A stretch of DNA of 64,000 nucleotides from positions 22,975 through 86,974 of the forward strand of contig DASXZV010000010.1 in the NCBI GenBank assembly GCA_036501715.1. The letters are read 5' to 3'. A program made the position numbers and the translations under genes. The notes under the pieces are model-generated. The model had not been told where the DNA came from. It saw nothing but the letters and a program-made list of their open reading frames with translations, and ran no database searches. Positions 27,557 to 37,228 of the stretch are shown in pieces (position 1 is the first letter of the stretch; the number at the start of each line of letters is the position of its first letter). The DNA is from Solirubrobacteraceae bacterium (GTDB taxonomy: Bacteria > Actinomycetota > Thermoleophilia > Solirubrobacterales > Solirubrobacteraceae).

Positions 27557-28567
27557 ATGAATCAGGCCGTTGGCCGCCAGCCGACAATCAACGGCTCGCC
27601 ATATGAGATTTGCCTTGTCAGCAGGGAGGAGATCGTGCTGGCCGCCAACGCAGGAGAGCTCGCAAGCGAGCTCTCCGAACCCGTCGGGTATGTACTTGCA
27701 ACCACCGGCAAGCGGCTGCGGTCGGCGATTGTGCTGAGCTCCGCGCACGCAGGGCCCGATCCACACCACCAGGATGTCCGGACGGGGGCCATCGCAATTG
27801 AGCTCGGCCATTTGGCGACGCTAGCGCACGACGACATTCTCGATGACGGCACAGTGCGGCGTGGCACCGACACGGTCGGTGTCGCGTATGGGAGTCTGGC
27901 ATCTGGGTATGTCGGTGGTGCTTTGGTTGTGCGCGCCTCTGAACTGATGGCTACCTTTGGCGAGGAGCCAATGCGTGTCTTTGCGCGCACCGCGGCTGAG
28001 ATGTGCAGCGGGCAAATGGCTGAGTTCGAGGACAGTTTCGACACGACGCGATCGGTCGAGCGGTATTACCTGGCCATCGCCGGCAAGACGGCCAGTCTGT
28101 TTGAGGTGGCCGCCTGGCTCGGCGGCTGGCTTGCCGGCGCACCCACAGCGACCGTGAACAGCCTCGCACGCTTTGGACGGGAATTCGGAATGGCATTTCA
28201 AATAGCCGATGACATTCTCGACGTGCTCGCTCCTATCAGTGAGACGGGCAAGCTCCAGGCAAAGGACCTGCTCCAAGGCGTGTACAGCCTGCCGGTGATC
28301 TACGCACTGCAGACCGACCGCGAGCTTGGGGCAGCGCTTGAGCAACCTCTCACACAGGCTGATCTCCCCAAGCTGGTCGCCAGGATCAGGGCCAGCGGGG
28401 GAGTTGTGCTGGCCAGCCACGAGTGCTTCAGGCGAGCGAGACGCGCGCAAAGCATTGTGCATGAGGAGTTGGAGCCAGCTGTCGCCACGAGCCTCGCCGC
28501 TCTGGTAGAGCAGTCGATCGCTCCGATTACACGCCGCATGAAGCCAAAGCACGCCGATGCCGCTTGA
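27557..28567 (+). CDS. trans-polyprenyl diphosphate synthase
   Basis: FARM LAHDDILDDGTVRRG and SARM FQIADDILD are both intact, as is KTASLF. Start at MNQAVG (27557). Confidence 0.85.
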   Translation: MNQAVGRQPTINGSPYEICLVSREEIVLAANAGELASELSEPVGYVLATTGKRLRSAIVLSSAHAGPDPHHQDVRTGAIAIELGHLATLAHDDILDDGTVRRGTDTVGVAYGSLASGYVGGALVVRASELMATFGEEPMRVFARTAAEMCSGQMAEFEDSFDTTRSVERYYLAIAGKTASLFEVAAWLGGWLAGAPTATVNSLARFGREFGMAFQIADDILDVLAPISETGKLQAKDLLQGVYSLPVIYALQTDRELGAALEQPLTQADLPKLVARIRASGGVVLASHECFRRARRAQSIVHEELEPAVATSLAALVEQSIAPITRRMKPKHADAA

Positions 28568-30797
28568 GGAAACCGACACAGTAGTCGTCGGAGCCGGCCC
28601 AGCCGGGAGTGCGTGTGCGGCGATGCTGGCCGAGCGTGGGCACGCCGTAACGCTTATCGACCAGCACCATTTCCCTCGCGACAAGGCCTGTGGGGATGGC
28701 CTGAGCCCAACAGCGGTGGCAGCGCTTGGGCGCCTTGGCCTCGACATATTTCTCGCGAAGGCCCAAGTCATCGAGGGTTACCGCGTGGTGCTCGACCATA
28801 GGCGTGAGCGGATCATTCGCTACGCGCACGGGGCCCGCGGTCGGTGCGTGCCTCGTGCATTTCTTGATCAGGCGATCCTTAACGCCGCGCTCGCACGAGG
28901 TGCGCATTTTGTCAGAGGGCGAGCGCGAGCATTGGAGTTCGGCGAGGACCGCAAGGCGACAGTGCTAACTGCGTGTGGCGAGGGCAAGCAACTGAGGCTG
29001 GTGGCGCGGCAAGTCGTTGCGAGTGACGGCGCTACATCGGCGATGCGAGGGATCGTGCAGGCCGATGTACCGTCACAGGCTGTCCGAGCCTGGGGAATTC
29101 GCGGCTACTATGCGACTGAGCGCGCACTGGACGACTTCTTCGACGTCTACGTGCCGCTTGAAGTTCAGGGGACGAAGCTGCCCGGCTACGGCTGGGTCTT
29201 CCCCGTCGGGGAGCGTGTGGCGAACATCGGAGTTGGGTATTTCCGTCGCCGTGTCGCGGACGATTTCCCTAATCTCAACGTCGCACTGGATGCCTTCGTC
29301 GAGGAGCTCCGCCACCGTGAGCGGCGCCGCTTTGGGGATATCCAAAGTCTGGGGCGCCCAACCGGGTCACCGCTAGCCACCAATTTCCACGCAAAACGCA
29401 GCAGTTCTCAAATGCTGGTTTTCGCCGGCGACGCCGCTGGCACAACCGATCCATTTACGGGCGAGGGTATCGCCCCAGCCATCGAAAGTGGGATGCTGGC
29501 TGCCGATTGTATCCAAGCCTCGCATCTGCGTGGCGTTTCACTAGCCACATATGGACGCAAGTTGGCAGTGCGTATGCCACGCTGTGGGCAGGACTTCTCG
29601 AGTCTTGCTCGTCTTGCCACCCAACTGGAAGACGGAGCACATAGGCTCACCTCACGACTCTGGATGCTCGGTATACCCAATGCCGTTCTCGCCATAGCGT
29701 CGGACCCCGATCCAAGACCCGATCCCCATCGGACCGCCGTCGCCGCGCTCCTGCACGGTATGCCCGCGCCTGTCGCAGCAGGTATGGAGTCCGTCGAGCG
29801 CGAATTGCTCGAGGAAATAGCGACGAGCTTCCCGCTCGCGACCCCCGTGATTGCCCGTGAGACTCGCTCCCACGGGGGGCCGGTATATGCGGCCACGCTG
29901 ATCTGTGCCGTGCACACTTTTGGCGGGGAGCCAGGGGAGGAGGCTGCACTGGGTGCCCAGGCGGCGGAGTACCTTGCGCCATTCCCGGTGCTCCTGGGCG
30001 GCATCAGCCATTGCCGGCGTGGGAAGCTGGAGAAGCTGAATGATGCGCTGGTGGTGCTGATCGCGGATTTCGCGATCAGCAAGTCAATCGCCGCCGTCTC
30101 GAGGATTGGCCCTGACGCGGCCCTGCAGTTGGCGCAGGCGGCTCGTCAGGTGTGCGAGGCCGGCATGATGACTGCCGCCGACCGCTATGACCTCCACCGC
30201 ACGCAAGACCGCTACATCGACTCTGTCGAGCGGATGATCGGCAGTGTCTTTGCTTTTGCTGCGGGCTTGGGGGCAGAACTGGCAGGCGCTTCGCCATCGG
30301 CGGTGCGCTGCGCTCGCCGGTATGGCTGCGAACTCGGAGTGGCCTACCAAGCTTCCGAGGATCTAATCGAGCTCACCGCTCCCGTAGAAGGCCAATCTGA
30401 CCTACTGGTCTCGCTACGACGGGGTGTCTACAGCCTGCCGGTATTGATAGCAGCGGGTCGCGACCGGAGGTTGCGCAAGCGTTTGACGGCAGGGGTTGGT
30501 TACTCGGAGATATCGGAGATAGTGCAGCGGATACGCCTCACGGGTGCGATGGACGATGTCCGCGGACTCGTGGACCAGCGTGTCGAGTCTGCGCGCGCTG
30601 CGCTGGCGGCGGCTCAGTGTGCGACGGTCAACGAGCTCACAGGACTGGCCGACTGGGTCGGTGCACGTACGGACCAGCTCCAGCGAGGCAGGGAGGAGGC
30701 AGCAGCCGGCGAGGTAAGCGGATCCGCTGCCAATGGGACTCCCGTCGACACCTTCGCCACGCTTCACAGTCCAGGCGAGGACAGCGCATGGCAGTGA
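28557..30797 (+). CDS. geranylgeranyl-reductase-family flavoprotein fused to a degenerate polyprenyl-synthase-like domain
   Basis: N-terminal VVVGAGPAGSACAAML...FPRDKACGDGLSP...FAGDAAGTTDPFTGEGI (GGR family). The C-terminal roughly 330 aa is paralogous to the preceding synthase (shared RGVYSLPV, YG.ELG.A.Q), but the FARM position reads LLGGISHCRRG and the SARM reads QASEDLIE. Confidence 0.85.
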   Translation: MPLEETDTVVVGAGPAGSACAAMLAERGHAVTLIDQHHFPRDKACGDGLSPTAVAALGRLGLDIFLAKAQVIEGYRVVLDHRRERIIRYAHGARGRCVPRAFLDQAILNAALARGAHFVRGRARALEFGEDRKATVLTACGEGKQLRLVARQVVASDGATSAMRGIVQADVPSQAVRAWGIRGYYATERALDDFFDVYVPLEVQGTKLPGYGWVFPVGERVANIGVGYFRRRVADDFPNLNVALDAFVEELRHRERRRFGDIQSLGRPTGSPLATNFHAKRSSSQMLVFAGDAAGTTDPFTGEGIAPAIESGMLAADCIQASHLRGVSLATYGRKLAVRMPRCGQDFSSLARLATQLEDGAHRLTSRLWMLGIPNAVLAIASDPDPRPDPHRTAVAALLHGMPAPVAAGMESVERELLEEIATSFPLATPVIARETRSHGGPVYAATLICAVHTFGGEPGEEAALGAQAAEYLAPFPVLLGGISHCRRGKLEKLNDALVVLIADFAISKSIAAVSRIGPDAALQLAQAARQVCEAGMMTAADRYDLHRTQDRYIDSVERMIGSVFAFAAGLGAELAGASPSAVRCARRYGCELGVAYQASEDLIELTAPVEGQSDLLVSLRRGVYSLPVLIAAGRDRRLRKRLTAGVGYSEISEIVQRIRLTGAMDDVRGLVDQRVESARAALAAAQCATVNELTGLADWVGARTDQLQRGREEAAAGEVSGSAANGTPVDTFATLHSPGEDSAWQ

Positions 30798-36419: not shown

Positions 36420-37228
36420 GGCCCAGCAGTCACAGGCTCGATGTGAACTTTGGTCGTATTGCCGATGGCTACTCGCAGTACCGGGGGGGATTCCCACTGG
36501 CGCTCTTCGATCGGATCGAGAGCCACTATGGGGCGACTCTGGCAGGGCAATACGTACTGGATATGGGGTGCGGGACAGGAGCGCTCGCGAACGAGCTTGC
36601 GGCCAGGCACAGCTACGTCACCGCCATCGACCTGTCCGAGAACATGATTGCACAGGCCTCCAGGCGCGCTGAACGCGAGGGCGTGACAGTGATGTATCGC
36701 TGTGCGAGCGCCGAGGCGACAGGCTTGCGGCAAGAGAGCTTTGACTTGGTGACAGCGGGTCGTTGTTGGCACTGGTTTGATCGGCCGAAGGTCGCCGCCG
36801 AGGCCCGCCGCGTATTGCGGAAGCGGGGAATGCTTGTGATATGTCATTTTGATCGCGTACGCGGAGCGGACGGTGACCTGGTTGCGGCGACCCAGGCGCT
36901 CGTGGAGCGCCATAACCCTGCGTGGGCGCAGGCGCCGCCGCAGCGATTCGGTCTGGGAGTCGGTATCTACGCTCAATGGCTTGGAGATATGAGAGAGGCA
37001 GGCTTTGGCGATCTCGAGACATTCTCCTTCGACGTAACCGTGTCTTACACCCACGAGACCTGGCGCGGTCGGGTGCGCTCGAGTGGGGGCGTTGGAGGGA
37101 GCCTTGGTCCCGAGGCAGTAGCACGCCTGGACGAGGAGCTCGGCGAGTTGTTGAGTGCCCGGTTCTCACACGAGCCGGTAGCAGTGACACAGCGAGTGTT
37201 TTGTGCGATGGGCCGCCGTCCTGGGTAG
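36416..37228 (+). CDS. class I SAM-dependent methyltransferase
   Basis: Motif I VLDMGCGTGALANEL, then FDLVTAGRCWHWF. ATGA overlap with the VOC gene. Confidence 0.85.
   Translation: MRPSSHRLDVNFGRIADGYSQYRGGFPLALFDRIESHYGATLAGQYVLDMGCGTGALANELAARHSYVTAIDLSENMIAQASRRAEREGVTVMYRCASAEATGLRQESFDLVTAGRCWHWFDRPKVAAEARRVLRKRGMLVICHFDRVRGADGDLVAATQALVERHNPAWAQAPPQRFGLGVGIYAQWLGDMREAGFGDLETFSFDVTVSYTHETWRGRVRSSGGVGGSLGPEAVARLDEELGELLSARFSHEPVAVTQRVFCAMGRRPG

Follow-up and report, generated by a model that had tools for sequence, protein, structure and literature searches.

A rare isoprenoid gene cluster of an uncultured Solirubrobacteraceae bacterium, predicted to make an exported prenylated lipid

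The cluster and its closest described systems

Digeranylgeranylglyceryl phosphate (DGGGP) synthase of the archaeal ether-lipid pathway and the chlorophyll synthase of phytyl-type pathways both prenylate oxygen with C20 chains, and both act together with reductases of the geranylgeranyl reductase (GGR) family. Here we analyse a gene cluster of related logic, at positions 27557-42080 of a 64,000-nucleotide stretch of contig DASXZV010000010.1 (the window) from an uncultured soil Solirubrobacteraceae bacterium; the metagenome runs that bear the locus are soil runs, and one flank protein shares a 90% identity cluster with a protein from a Solirubrobacteraceae metagenome-assembled genome. Its 13 genes, eight on the + strand and five in a convergent operon on the - strand, very probably form one conserved functional cluster, and their product is probably an exported, prenylated and partly saturated lipid. 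Our best overall reading, which we hold with no more than even confidence, is an accessory cluster whose product would be a partly saturated, O-prenylated isoprenoid lipid that bears a ribose-type head group and is exported. An original prediction, made by a model from the letters of the sequence, had seen in the + strand genes a single isoprenoid operon, whose product of unknown type would probably be exported and be a partially saturated prenylated lipid or a meroterpenoid. The exported, partially saturated lipid is still the best summary of the product; the isoprenoid operon and all of the domain calls were upheld, the latter by Pfam and NCBIfam, while the size of the unit has to be enlarged, from the + strand operon to 13 genes including the convergent operon at 37236-42080. 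The features are, with positions in the window:

27557-28567, + strand, trans-polyprenyl diphosphate synthase (PPS), catalytic (PF00348, 174.6 bits)
28557-30797, + strand, GGR-family flavoenzyme fused to a polyprenyl-synthase-like domain without the first aspartate-rich motif (FARM) (TIGR02032, 178.6 vs 158.8)
30788-32914, + strand, MMPL/RND-type lipid exporter (PF03176, 220.7 bits, two halves)
32911-34464, + strand, NAD-binding enzyme of the S-adenosylhomocysteine (AdoHcy) hydrolase (SAHH) fold, 517 aa, called AHCYL here (PDB profile, AlphaFold2 (AF2) model, Foldseek)
34442-34942, + strand, orphan partner of AHCYL, hyp166 family (no Pfam, NCBIfam or PADLOC match)
34939-35979, + strand, UbiA-superfamily membrane prenyltransferase of a very small clade (PF01040, 97.7 vs a gathering threshold of 34.2)
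35976-36419, + strand, single-domain VOC protein of glyoxalase/dioxygenase fold (PF13669, PF00903; PDB 2qqz, 4e-7)
36416-37228, + strand, class I SAM-dependent methyltransferase (Methyltransf_11, 1.6e-25; Ubie_methyltran, 3e-13; VLDMGCGTG motif)
37236-38129, - strand, alpha/beta-hydrolase of esterase or acyltransferase type (Peptidase_S15, Hydrolase_4, AXE1; PDB 7d78, GrgF)
38133-39518, - strand, cytochrome P450 (PF00067, 210.8 bits; FGGGTRRCLG heme loop)
39515-40288, - strand, short-chain dehydrogenase/reductase (SDR) (adh_short, 8.7e-41; TGAARGIG, YSAAK)
40301-41083, - strand, ABC-2 type exporter permease (ABC2_membrane, 1.3e-19)
41100-42080, - strand, ABC exporter ATPase (Walker A GANGAGKST, signature YSGGQ, Walker B LLDEP)
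23008-42164, no strand, compositional island that holds the cluster (GC 0.617, with GC at third codon positions, GC3)

The comparison with described systems turns on the UbiA-superfamily enzyme, which would join chain and head group. It belongs to the superfamily by its PF01040 match and by both Asp-rich motifs, NDILDRKKD and DVETD, which are invariant in its clade (N68, D69, D72, D76; D197, D201), and it falls below the cut-off of every NCBIfam UbiA-family model: 28.7 vs 102 for MenA, 37.5 vs 364 for 4-hydroxybenzoate (4-HB) prenyltransferase, 29.9 vs 420 for MqnP, 16.7 vs 226 for HPT, 29.6 vs 296 for the DGGGP synthase model PRK12882 (29 vs ~296-353 for the DGGGPS equivalogs), 52.9 vs 212 for BchG, 30.4 vs 436 for ChlG and 19.5 vs 234 for the decaprenyl-phosphate phosphoribosyltransferase NF008977. 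In the PDB, the matches of a clade profile were confined to DGGGP synthase (1.4e-10) and chlorophyll a synthase (4e-10), and the single sequence has the same two nearest solved structures; MenA, 4-HB prenyltransferase (UbiA), UBIAD1, COQ2 and DPPR-synthase structures were not detected by the clade profile at E <= 10. On these comparisons, DGGGP synthase and chlorophyll synthase are the nearest relatives of the enzyme, yet it is a member of neither family. The clade is very small (13 clusters in 5.8e9 proteins), and its ten nearest members, 53-57% identical, lie on contigs that also bear AHCYL, with co-location confirmed in the loci examined.

Because its scores are below cut-off and no MenA-type structure is matched, the enzyme is not the menaquinone prenyltransferase of the cell. 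Its scores lie far below the MenA, UbiA and MqnP cut-offs, and the locus is not a housekeeping menaquinone locus. The original prediction had also offered two analogies. That with mycobacterial MenA/MenJ/GrcC1/MenG finds no support for the joining enzyme, in model scores or in the PDB profile, whereas its archaeal-type alternative gains from the matches to DGGGP and chlorophyll synthases, which favour O-prenylation of archaeal or phytyl type. By analogy with these enzymes the prenyl linkage may run through oxygen, a proposal whose chances we place just short of even. AHCYL is missing from the surroundings of the clade's most divergent UbiA member (39% identity; L092:2299-7441, where L-numbers denote loci). 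The genes beside that member are for an ABC-2 exporter, a nucleotide pyrophosphatase/phosphodiesterase and an unknown protein of 450 aa, in an ebo-like arrangement, and this set adjoins acyl-AMP ligase, ketosynthase, acyl carrier protein and aminotransferase genes.

With the phytyl logic of chlorophyll and tocopherol synthesis, the cluster shares a prenyl diphosphate synthase, a GGR-family reductase, a UbiA enzyme near chlorophyll a synthase and a methyltransferase. It differs from these pathways in having no tetrapyrrole or homogentisate genes, in the low BchG, ChlG and HPT scores of its UbiA enzyme, in the fusion of its reductase to a pseudo-synthase, and in the addition of an SAHH-like enzyme, a P450 and two exporters. 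The archaeal ether-lipid pathway provides the best UbiA profile match, and its GGR saturase likewise acts on an isoprenoid chain; in contrast, no glycerol-1-phosphate dehydrogenase, GGGPS or CDP-archaeol synthase was found in the cluster or the window, the DGGGPS equivalog scores are low, the host is bacterial and the locus is accessory. The mycobacterial set of GrcC1 (Rv0562), MenJ (Rv0561c), MenA and MenG resembles the locus in that the PPS is nearest to GrcC1-type synthases, the GGR half nearest to MenJ, and the methyltransferase UbiE-like. However, the first two scores are below cut-off (179.8 vs 600 and 153.8 vs 700), the UbiA enzyme is not MenA-like, men and mqn genes are missing, and this locus has exporters and a foreign composition.

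Two other comparisons concern a ribose-type head group. The decaprenyl-phospho-ribose/arabinose pathway (Rv3806c, DprE1/DprE2) combines, as this cluster may do, a UbiA enzyme, possible redox enzymes for a ribose hydroxyl and exporters of polyprenyl lipid or envelope material, but the DPPR model score of our enzyme is 19.5 vs 234 and the cluster has neither a DprE1-type flavoenzyme nor a phosphatase. In 1-tuberculosinyladenosine of Mycobacterium tuberculosis (Rv3377c/Rv3378c), a terpene chain is carried on a ribonucleoside and the lipid is released, which is the same idea; the enzymes there are a class II cyclase and a transferase of cis-prenyl fold, unlike the UbiA, GGR and SAHH-like enzymes here, and an adenosine head group is not implied. 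As in herbicidin and aureonuclemycin biosynthesis, an SAHH homologue of ~500-560 aa occurs here beside methyltransferases as a biosynthetic enzyme: the 558-aa Her4/HcdB/AnmB, known to us by size and annotation, belongs to the core enzymes that make the herbicidin nucleosides (PMC6794829). Actinomycete AHCYL loci likewise carry radical-SAM and oxidoreductase genes. Unlike the herbicidin loci, the cluster has no equivalents of Her5-7, and AHCYL is accompanied here by a UbiA prenyltransferase together with a lipid tail module.

The logic of the cluster is thus closest to the pairs of GGR with ChlG or DGGGP synthase, and only superficially like GrcC1/MenJ/MenA/MenG. Its proteins fail the equivalog models, their membership being at the level of the superfamily (UbiA, GGR, trans-isoprenyl diphosphate synthase, MMPL, SAHH fold). 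A literature search found no paper combining a UbiA enzyme with an SAHH homologue or describing this gene combination, and no published pathway that matches. The kind of locus, an isoprenoid biosynthetic gene cluster, is already known; the unusual part is an uncharacterised head-group cassette.

Tail enzymes, head-group cassette and tailoring genes

The PPS has the motifs of a trans-isoprenyl diphosphate synthase, with FARM DDILD at residue 92, the second aspartate-rich motif (SARM) DDILD at residue 218, and Ala/Thr at positions -5/-4. Its best NCBIfam models are of nonaprenyl, heptaprenyl and solanesyl types, all below their cut-offs, the mycobacterial nonaprenyl (GrcC1-type) equivalog among them. 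The predicted product is an all-trans prenyl diphosphate of at least C20, and the models lean towards a medium or long chain.

Archaeal GGR structures define the family by GxGxxG, a catalytic Cys, YxWxFP and xxGDAAG. The reductase half of the fusion carries all four (GAGPAG at residue 12, KACGDG at 43, YGWVFP at 211 and FAGDAAG at 289) and is thus a member of the GGR family, without reaching the MenJ equivalog. In the C-terminal domain of the fusion, FARM is replaced by GGISH and SARM by EDLIE, so that the motifs of a catalytic synthase are missing. All 115 fusion-family members checked have lost FARM and keep only an acidic motif like SARM, E[DE]xx[ED]; in heteromeric prenyl synthases, the non-catalytic subunit likewise has no more than such an acidic motif. 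The fusion is common (>115 clusters at 90% identity) and lies directly 3' of the PPS in the contexts examined (window, L087, L088, L089, L090, L091). Together, the two genes are a common tail module that is not peculiar to this locus, and they may be a housekeeping module for partly saturated prenyl chains. A literature search found no paper describing the GGR/pseudo-synthase fusion. Fusions of 700-750 aa are common in uncultured Solirubrobacterales-like genomes, often without head-group genes (L088:8968-14227, L089:9004-12148, L090:9081-12205). The third tail gene encodes a member of the MMPL/RND family, with Asp-Tyr pairs at residues 226 and 575; its nearest NCBIfam model is the MmpL3 domain (259 vs a cut-off of 1400), and it is not an MmpL3 equivalog.

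AHCYL was assigned to the SAHH fold by a profile search against PDB SAHHs (E = 3.5e-34) and by its AF2 model (pLDDT 90), for which the top 50 Foldseek matches are all SAHH or SAHH-like chains, with target-normalised TM-scores of at most 0.81 and 17-21% identity; the model has an extra N-terminal domain at residues 20-105. The NAD site is present (GYGRIG at residue 327, invariant D350). We compared the substrate site with PMC13406329, which gives the residue roles, the adenine fingerprint and the position of the GHF gate (human His301-Phe302). H164 and D242, which would contact the 5'-OH, and T268 and K293, which would contact the 3'-OH, are kept and invariant in 34 relatives. The 2'-OH contacts are changed from Glu to Q267 and from Asp to E297. 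In place of the adenine fingerprint HxTxQ/E (or HxExK) we found IHHLTDF, aligned as H-x-L-x-D with D168 invariant, and in place of the GHF gate T-S410-R411; both TSR and IHHLTD are invariant in 34 family members. The score against the ahcY equivalog TIGR00936 is 63.5 vs a cut-off of 497.6. Judged by these residues, AHCYL is not a canonical AdoHcy hydrolase. The simplest reading of the residue pattern is that AHCYL would catalyse NAD-dependent oxidation of a ribose-type 3'-OH in a substrate with a different aglycone. We consider a ribose-type or nucleoside-like head group possible, although somewhat less likely than not. The SAHH homologue of the herbicidin pathway reportedly uses a 3'-keto intermediate for C-C bond formation.

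The gene downstream of AHCYL encodes an orphan protein whose family has 26 representatives in 1.84e9 proteins; its AF2 model (pLDDT 85) gave no PDB fold match at E < 0.001. Members of this hyp166 family lie directly downstream of AHCYL in ~40 of ~60 actinobacterial loci. In the reduced sister clusters, a protein of 270-292 aa consists of a hyp166-like N-terminal half and a VOC C-terminal half; the window VOC protein is 35% identical to the C-terminal half of the 270-aa fusion of L002, with the His, His and Glu positions in common. Since they are fused in the sister clusters, hyp166 and the VOC protein are functionally linked. A defence-system role for AHCYL and hyp166 was considered and ruled out: PADLOC gave no match for AHCYL, hyp166 or the VOC protein, the one hit next to these genes being a generic methyltransferase-domain match of the methyltransferase to mad2.

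Homologues of the methyltransferase adjoin AHCYL in 24 loci. By clustering the ORFs of neighbour genes, with a GC3 filter against the shadow ORFs of high-GC DNA, we observed that AHCYL, a hyp166-family protein and the methyltransferase are a conserved trio in ~40 actinomycete loci (L004, L006-L065, L085; e.g. L085:10001-18844 and L012:6457-14373). In Streptomyces, Streptosporangium, Kitasatospora and relatives, the trio is accompanied by a phosphoribosyltransferase (PRTase)-like protein of 650-680 aa, NUDIX and adenylate-kinase-like proteins and HAD/EEP phosphatases, and further by GNAT, aldo-keto reductase and GH15 proteins and a 739-aa B12 radical-SAM enzyme. From their predicted functions, these neighbours point to ribose- or nucleotide-type chemistry, and the actinomycete loci are probably an uncharacterised family of nucleoside- or ribose-type biosynthetic clusters. 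Given the conservation of the trio, the fusion of hyp166 with VOC and the ribose and NAD contacts kept by AHCYL, the original prediction was probably wrong in stating that no head-group pathway is present.

The convergent operon supplies tailoring and export genes, with the same GC3 as the rest of the cluster. The hydrolase is 48-56% identical to its copies in all four sister clusters. The P450 gene, also conserved in sister clusters, begins within the stop of the SDR gene (ATGA). Among solved structures the P450 is nearest to CYP3A, CYP51, CYP170A1, CYP120 and CYP97, and also to taxadiene hydroxylase and ferruginol synthase, so that by sequence it resembles P450s that oxidise isoprenoids, sterols and carotenoids. 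The SDR is present only in the window and in L086 (57% identity), where the ABC-2 permease is 67% identical. The start of the ABC ATPase is placed at 42080 or 42062 (sister-cluster ATPases have 317-345 aa). As read from the translations, the catalytic motifs are intact in PPS, GGR, UbiA, methyltransferase, P450, SDR, ABC ATPase and MMPL.

Operon structure, conservation and foreign composition

Eight + strand ORFs fill 27557-37228, each starting inside the end of the gene before, with overlaps from 5' to 3' of 11, 10, 4, 23, 4, 4 and 4 nt at all seven junctions. The overlap lengths of the original prediction are thereby reproduced exactly from the ORF coordinates, whereas its count of nine genes is not: its own list holds eight, the fusion being two domains of one gene. 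Note that two of the lengths rest on the choice of start. For the 10-nt overlap, other MMPL starts exist at 30794 and farther downstream. For the 23-nt overlap, the public gene call for hyp166 begins at 34565, but the family-conserved columns E8, L31 and R35 sit upstream of this position, so that the start lies before codon 31; of the candidate starts, the long form from 34442 appears more likely because of E8. The start of the GGR fusion is fixed at 28557 by its FAD-binding GxGxxG at residue 12. Overlaps of 4 nt occur in the flanks as well (e.g. 19229/19232 and 50759/50762), and seven in succession are the signature of an operon and not an anomaly. The genes of the homologous cluster L086/L087 are just as tightly coupled.

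The stops of the methyltransferase and the hydrolase, at the ends of the two convergent operons, are 7 nt apart (37228 vs 37236), which leaves no room for terminators. Read-through of either operon would yield antisense RNA against the other. We found no sigma-70-like promoter upstream of 27557; the regulatory-site scan found only one terminator-like site, at 27339, and an Rfam scan of the window found no family except one tRNA.

A Solirubrobacteraceae metagenome-assembled genome has all 13 genes in unchanged order, split over L086 and L087, at 37-67% identity. L091 has 11 of the 13 in another order and orientation, with hyp166 and VOC fused and no SDR: the P450 and ABC exporter are followed by divergent AHCYL-UbiA-methyltransferase, convergent hydrolase-hyp/VOC fusion-MMPL and divergent PPS-GGR fusion. 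Other loci hold parts of the set. We define the tail module as PPS, GGR fusion and MMPL, and the head and joining module as AHCYL, hyp166, UbiA, VOC, methyltransferase, hydrolase, P450 and ABC exporter. The head module occurs alone in L002, L003, L005 and L093 (AHCYL, UbiA, methyltransferase, hydrolase, hyp/VOC fusion, P450, ABC exporter), and the tail module alone in L088 (PPS, fusion and MMPL) and in L089 and L090 (PPS and fusion). The tail genes of the window are nearest to L088 (56/52/58% identity for PPS/fusion/MMPL), its head genes to L091 and L002 (AHCYL 62%). Since each module also occurs alone and their nearest relatives differ, the cluster is the union of two separately travelling modules; since three independent lineages (window, L086/L087 and L091) keep both together, the modules probably share a function. 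Transposase fragments (DUF4096, DDE_Tnp_1) adjoin the ABC end in L086 (L086:13214-13948), which fits mobility of the cluster.

The composition of the cluster sets it apart from its surroundings. The operon has a GC of 0.618; the flanks are richer, with 0.675 on the left (1-23000) and 0.688 on the right (42101-64000). The lower GC of the operon had been noticed in the original prediction, which put the flanks at roughly 70%, slightly above the 67-69% found. At third codon positions the separation is complete: GC3 is 0.61-0.71 in the 13 cluster genes vs 0.76-0.91 in 23 flank genes, without overlap (Mann-Whitney U = 0, p = 9e-7), and 0.68 vs 0.83 for cluster and flanks as a whole. The suggestion of acquisition is supported by GC and GC3, the composition being foreign to the flanks. 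We considered whether low GC is intrinsic to these genes and ruled this out: in the sister loci L002, L005 and L093 the GC of the cluster equals or exceeds that of its flanks, and the low GC therefore marks a foreign origin in this genome.

The low-GC region extends beyond the operon first described, from ~23.0 to 42.1 kb. Its left 4.5 kb hold two low-GC secreted proteins, a protein of metallo-beta-lactamase (MBL) fold, a TetR regulator and the 197-aa protein hyp197, and no homologues of these genes were found in the sister loci. The contig of a ~91%-identical relative from soil runs matches 22458-23012 and then continues with unlike sequence, and another soil-run contig matches only from 42210 onward. 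These breaks in homology, at ~23.0 and 42.2 kb, fit island borders at the compositional breaks, in assemblies that are fragmentary. To look for an empty site, we scanned metagenomes with the M28 peptidase of the right flank (42165-43427); none of the 80 loci obtained was syntenic, and no island-free site was found. Overall, the foreign GC3, the 13-cluster UbiA clade, the L086 transposase and the homology breaks of the relative indicate that the cluster is rare and accessory.

Proposed pathway, alternatives and significance

In the pathway that we propose, PPS would make an all-trans prenyl diphosphate of C20 or longer and the fusion would pair with it through its FARM-less synthase-like domain, with the GGR domain saturating one or more double bonds of the chain. 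The UbiA enzyme would then move the chain onto an oxygen nucleophile of the putative head group, giving an ether or an ester. In the weakest step of the scheme, AHCYL, hyp166 and VOC would carry out an NAD-assisted transient 3'-oxidation of a ribose-containing, non-adenine-like substrate. The methyltransferase, P450, SDR and hydrolase would tailor the product by methylation, hydroxylation and possibly de-esterification, and MMPL and/or the ABC-2 exporter would carry the lipid to the envelope or outside the cell. A more specific version of this scheme, which we consider rather unlikely, is that the cluster represents a new class of bacterial terpene-riboside lipids, in which NAD-using AHCYL and its partner would activate a non-adenine ribosyl head and the UbiA enzyme would link a partly saturated polyprenyl chain to it as an ether or ester, for export.

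Several points weigh against this scheme. Its chemistry, the product and the enzyme activities are predictions; no RNA run was found that contains the locus. The best chain-length models for PPS are all below their cut-offs. Since 64 kb of the genome are in view, the tail module could be the sole long-chain synthase of the cell. The likeness of the UbiA enzyme to DGGGP and chlorophyll synthases is remote (E ~1e-10) and makes O-linkage an analogy. AHCYL could bind adenosine in another way, or only remove AdoHcy for the methyltransferase, and the cluster lacks a phosphoribosyltransferase, nucleoside kinase or phosphatase that could provide a riboside. The role given to hyp166, whose fold is not recognisable, is a guess.

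The alternative that survives best, although improbable, is a variant respiratory or antioxidant lipoquinone or a meroterpenoid, in which the UbiA enzyme would C-prenylate an aromatic acid of primary metabolism, the P450 would hydroxylate it, the methyltransferase methylate it, the reductase saturate the chain in the manner of MenJ, and AHCYL recycle AdoHcy. Consistent with this, the methyltransferase matches MenG/UbiE/UbiG/MpqE models as well as Ubie_methyltran, the GGR half matches MenJ (153.8 bits), the nearest model of PPS is the mycobacterial nonaprenyl synthase, and the 24 loci in which a methyltransferase neighbours AHCYL would fit removal of AdoHcy; cultured Solirubrobacterales are reported to have MK-7(H4). 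However, the joining enzyme is far below the MenA, 4-HB, MqnP and HPT cut-offs and its profile finds no MenA, UbiA, UBIAD1 or COQ2 structure, and no UbiD/UbiX decarboxylase, ring hydroxylase, men or mqn gene was found in the window. In AHCYL both the GHF gate and the adenine fingerprint are missing and the score falls short of ahcY, and neither the two exporters nor the rarity and foreign composition of the island are in favour of a lipoquinone.

A shade less probable still is a polyprenyl-phosphate-linked pentose or glycolipid carrier of the envelope, analogous to decaprenyl-phospho-ribose/arabinose. The UbiA enzyme would join phosphoribosyl pyrophosphate (PRPP) or a sugar phosphate with a polyprenyl phosphate that is partly saturated, AHCYL and SDR would oxidise and reduce a ribose hydroxyl, and ABC-2 and MMPL would flip or export the product. 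The contacts of AHCYL, kept for ribose and NAD and not for adenine, would suit this pathway, as would the soluble PRTase-like protein and HAD phosphatase that fill the slot beside AHCYL-hyp-methyltransferase in Kitasatospora and Streptomyces, the sugar-nucleotide and glycosyltransferase genes beside the L088 tail module, and the inclusion of Wzm/TagG polyprenyl-glycan exporters among ABC-2 permeases. The low DPPR-synthase score and the lack of an Rv3806c-type structure among the profile matches speak against it, as does the lack of a phosphatase and a glycosyltransferase in the cluster; moreover, a P450, a methyltransferase and an esterase would be unusual in a carrier-lipid pathway, and the cluster is too sparsely distributed to be essential for the envelope.

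Terpene cyclases of UbiA type are known from fungi and bacteria, and the P450 has CYP170A1, taxadiene hydroxylase and ferruginol synthase among its nearest structures, so that a cyclised or oxidised terpenoid was also considered. It would have no head group of its own, and P450, SDR and methyltransferase would tailor it before export. We regard it as very improbable: prior reduction by GGR would remove the double bonds needed for cyclisation, AHCYL, hyp166 and VOC, the most conserved partners of the UbiA clade, would have no role, and the nearest relatives of the clade are transferases. Finally, the notion that the two operons or modules are unrelated chance neighbours in a variable region, to which the separate occurrence of tail (L088-L090) and head (L002, L093) modules and their different nearest relatives might point, can be dismissed as hardly credible, as window, L086/L087 and L091 all keep both modules, one of them rearranged, which is unexpected with a UbiA clade of ~10 lineages.

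Some genes near the cluster or elsewhere in the window deserve mention. Within the island, the MBL/TetR pair is flanked by the genes of two predicted secreted Ser/Thr/Gly-rich proteins (23116-23793, - strand, and 26587-27285, + strand; GC3 0.54, no Pfam match); paralogy of the two was considered and is unsupported, their sequences having no detectable mutual similarity. The 197-aa protein just upstream of the cluster (25795-26388, + strand, GC3 0.66) has weak DUF1016_N and PADLOC PDC-S02 matches. To the right of the island, 48606-52521 (- strand) encodes a 718-aa glutamine amidotransferase/chorismate-binding fusion of PabAB/TrpEG type; an ArgRS-like gene comes next, overlapping it by 4 nt, and a tRNA-Leu(TAA) at 52449-52521 abuts the annotated start of the ORF in this region. 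A second P450, a flavoprotein like Lys/Orn N-monooxygenases and a PQQ beta-propeller dehydrogenase follow at 52818-57258 (+ strand) with host-like GC3, and may be another small tailoring or siderophore-type set.

If expressed, the 13-gene cluster would produce a lipid class undescribed from Thermoleophilia, poorly cultured but abundant soil Actinomycetota. It would also give a first functional handle on a family of ~500-aa SAHH-fold enzymes that lack the adenine fingerprint and the gate, and on their orphan partner, for which no fold is matched. The GGR/pseudo-synthase fusion may explain saturated prenyl chains in these bacteria, and the modularity of tail and head offers a clean case of an isoprenoid pathway assembled by gene transfer. 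Were the terpene-riboside version of the scheme true, the trio of AHCYL, its partner and the methyltransferase would represent a 'ribose-editing' cassette, uncharacterised so far, that is widespread in the natural-product pathways of Actinomycetota.

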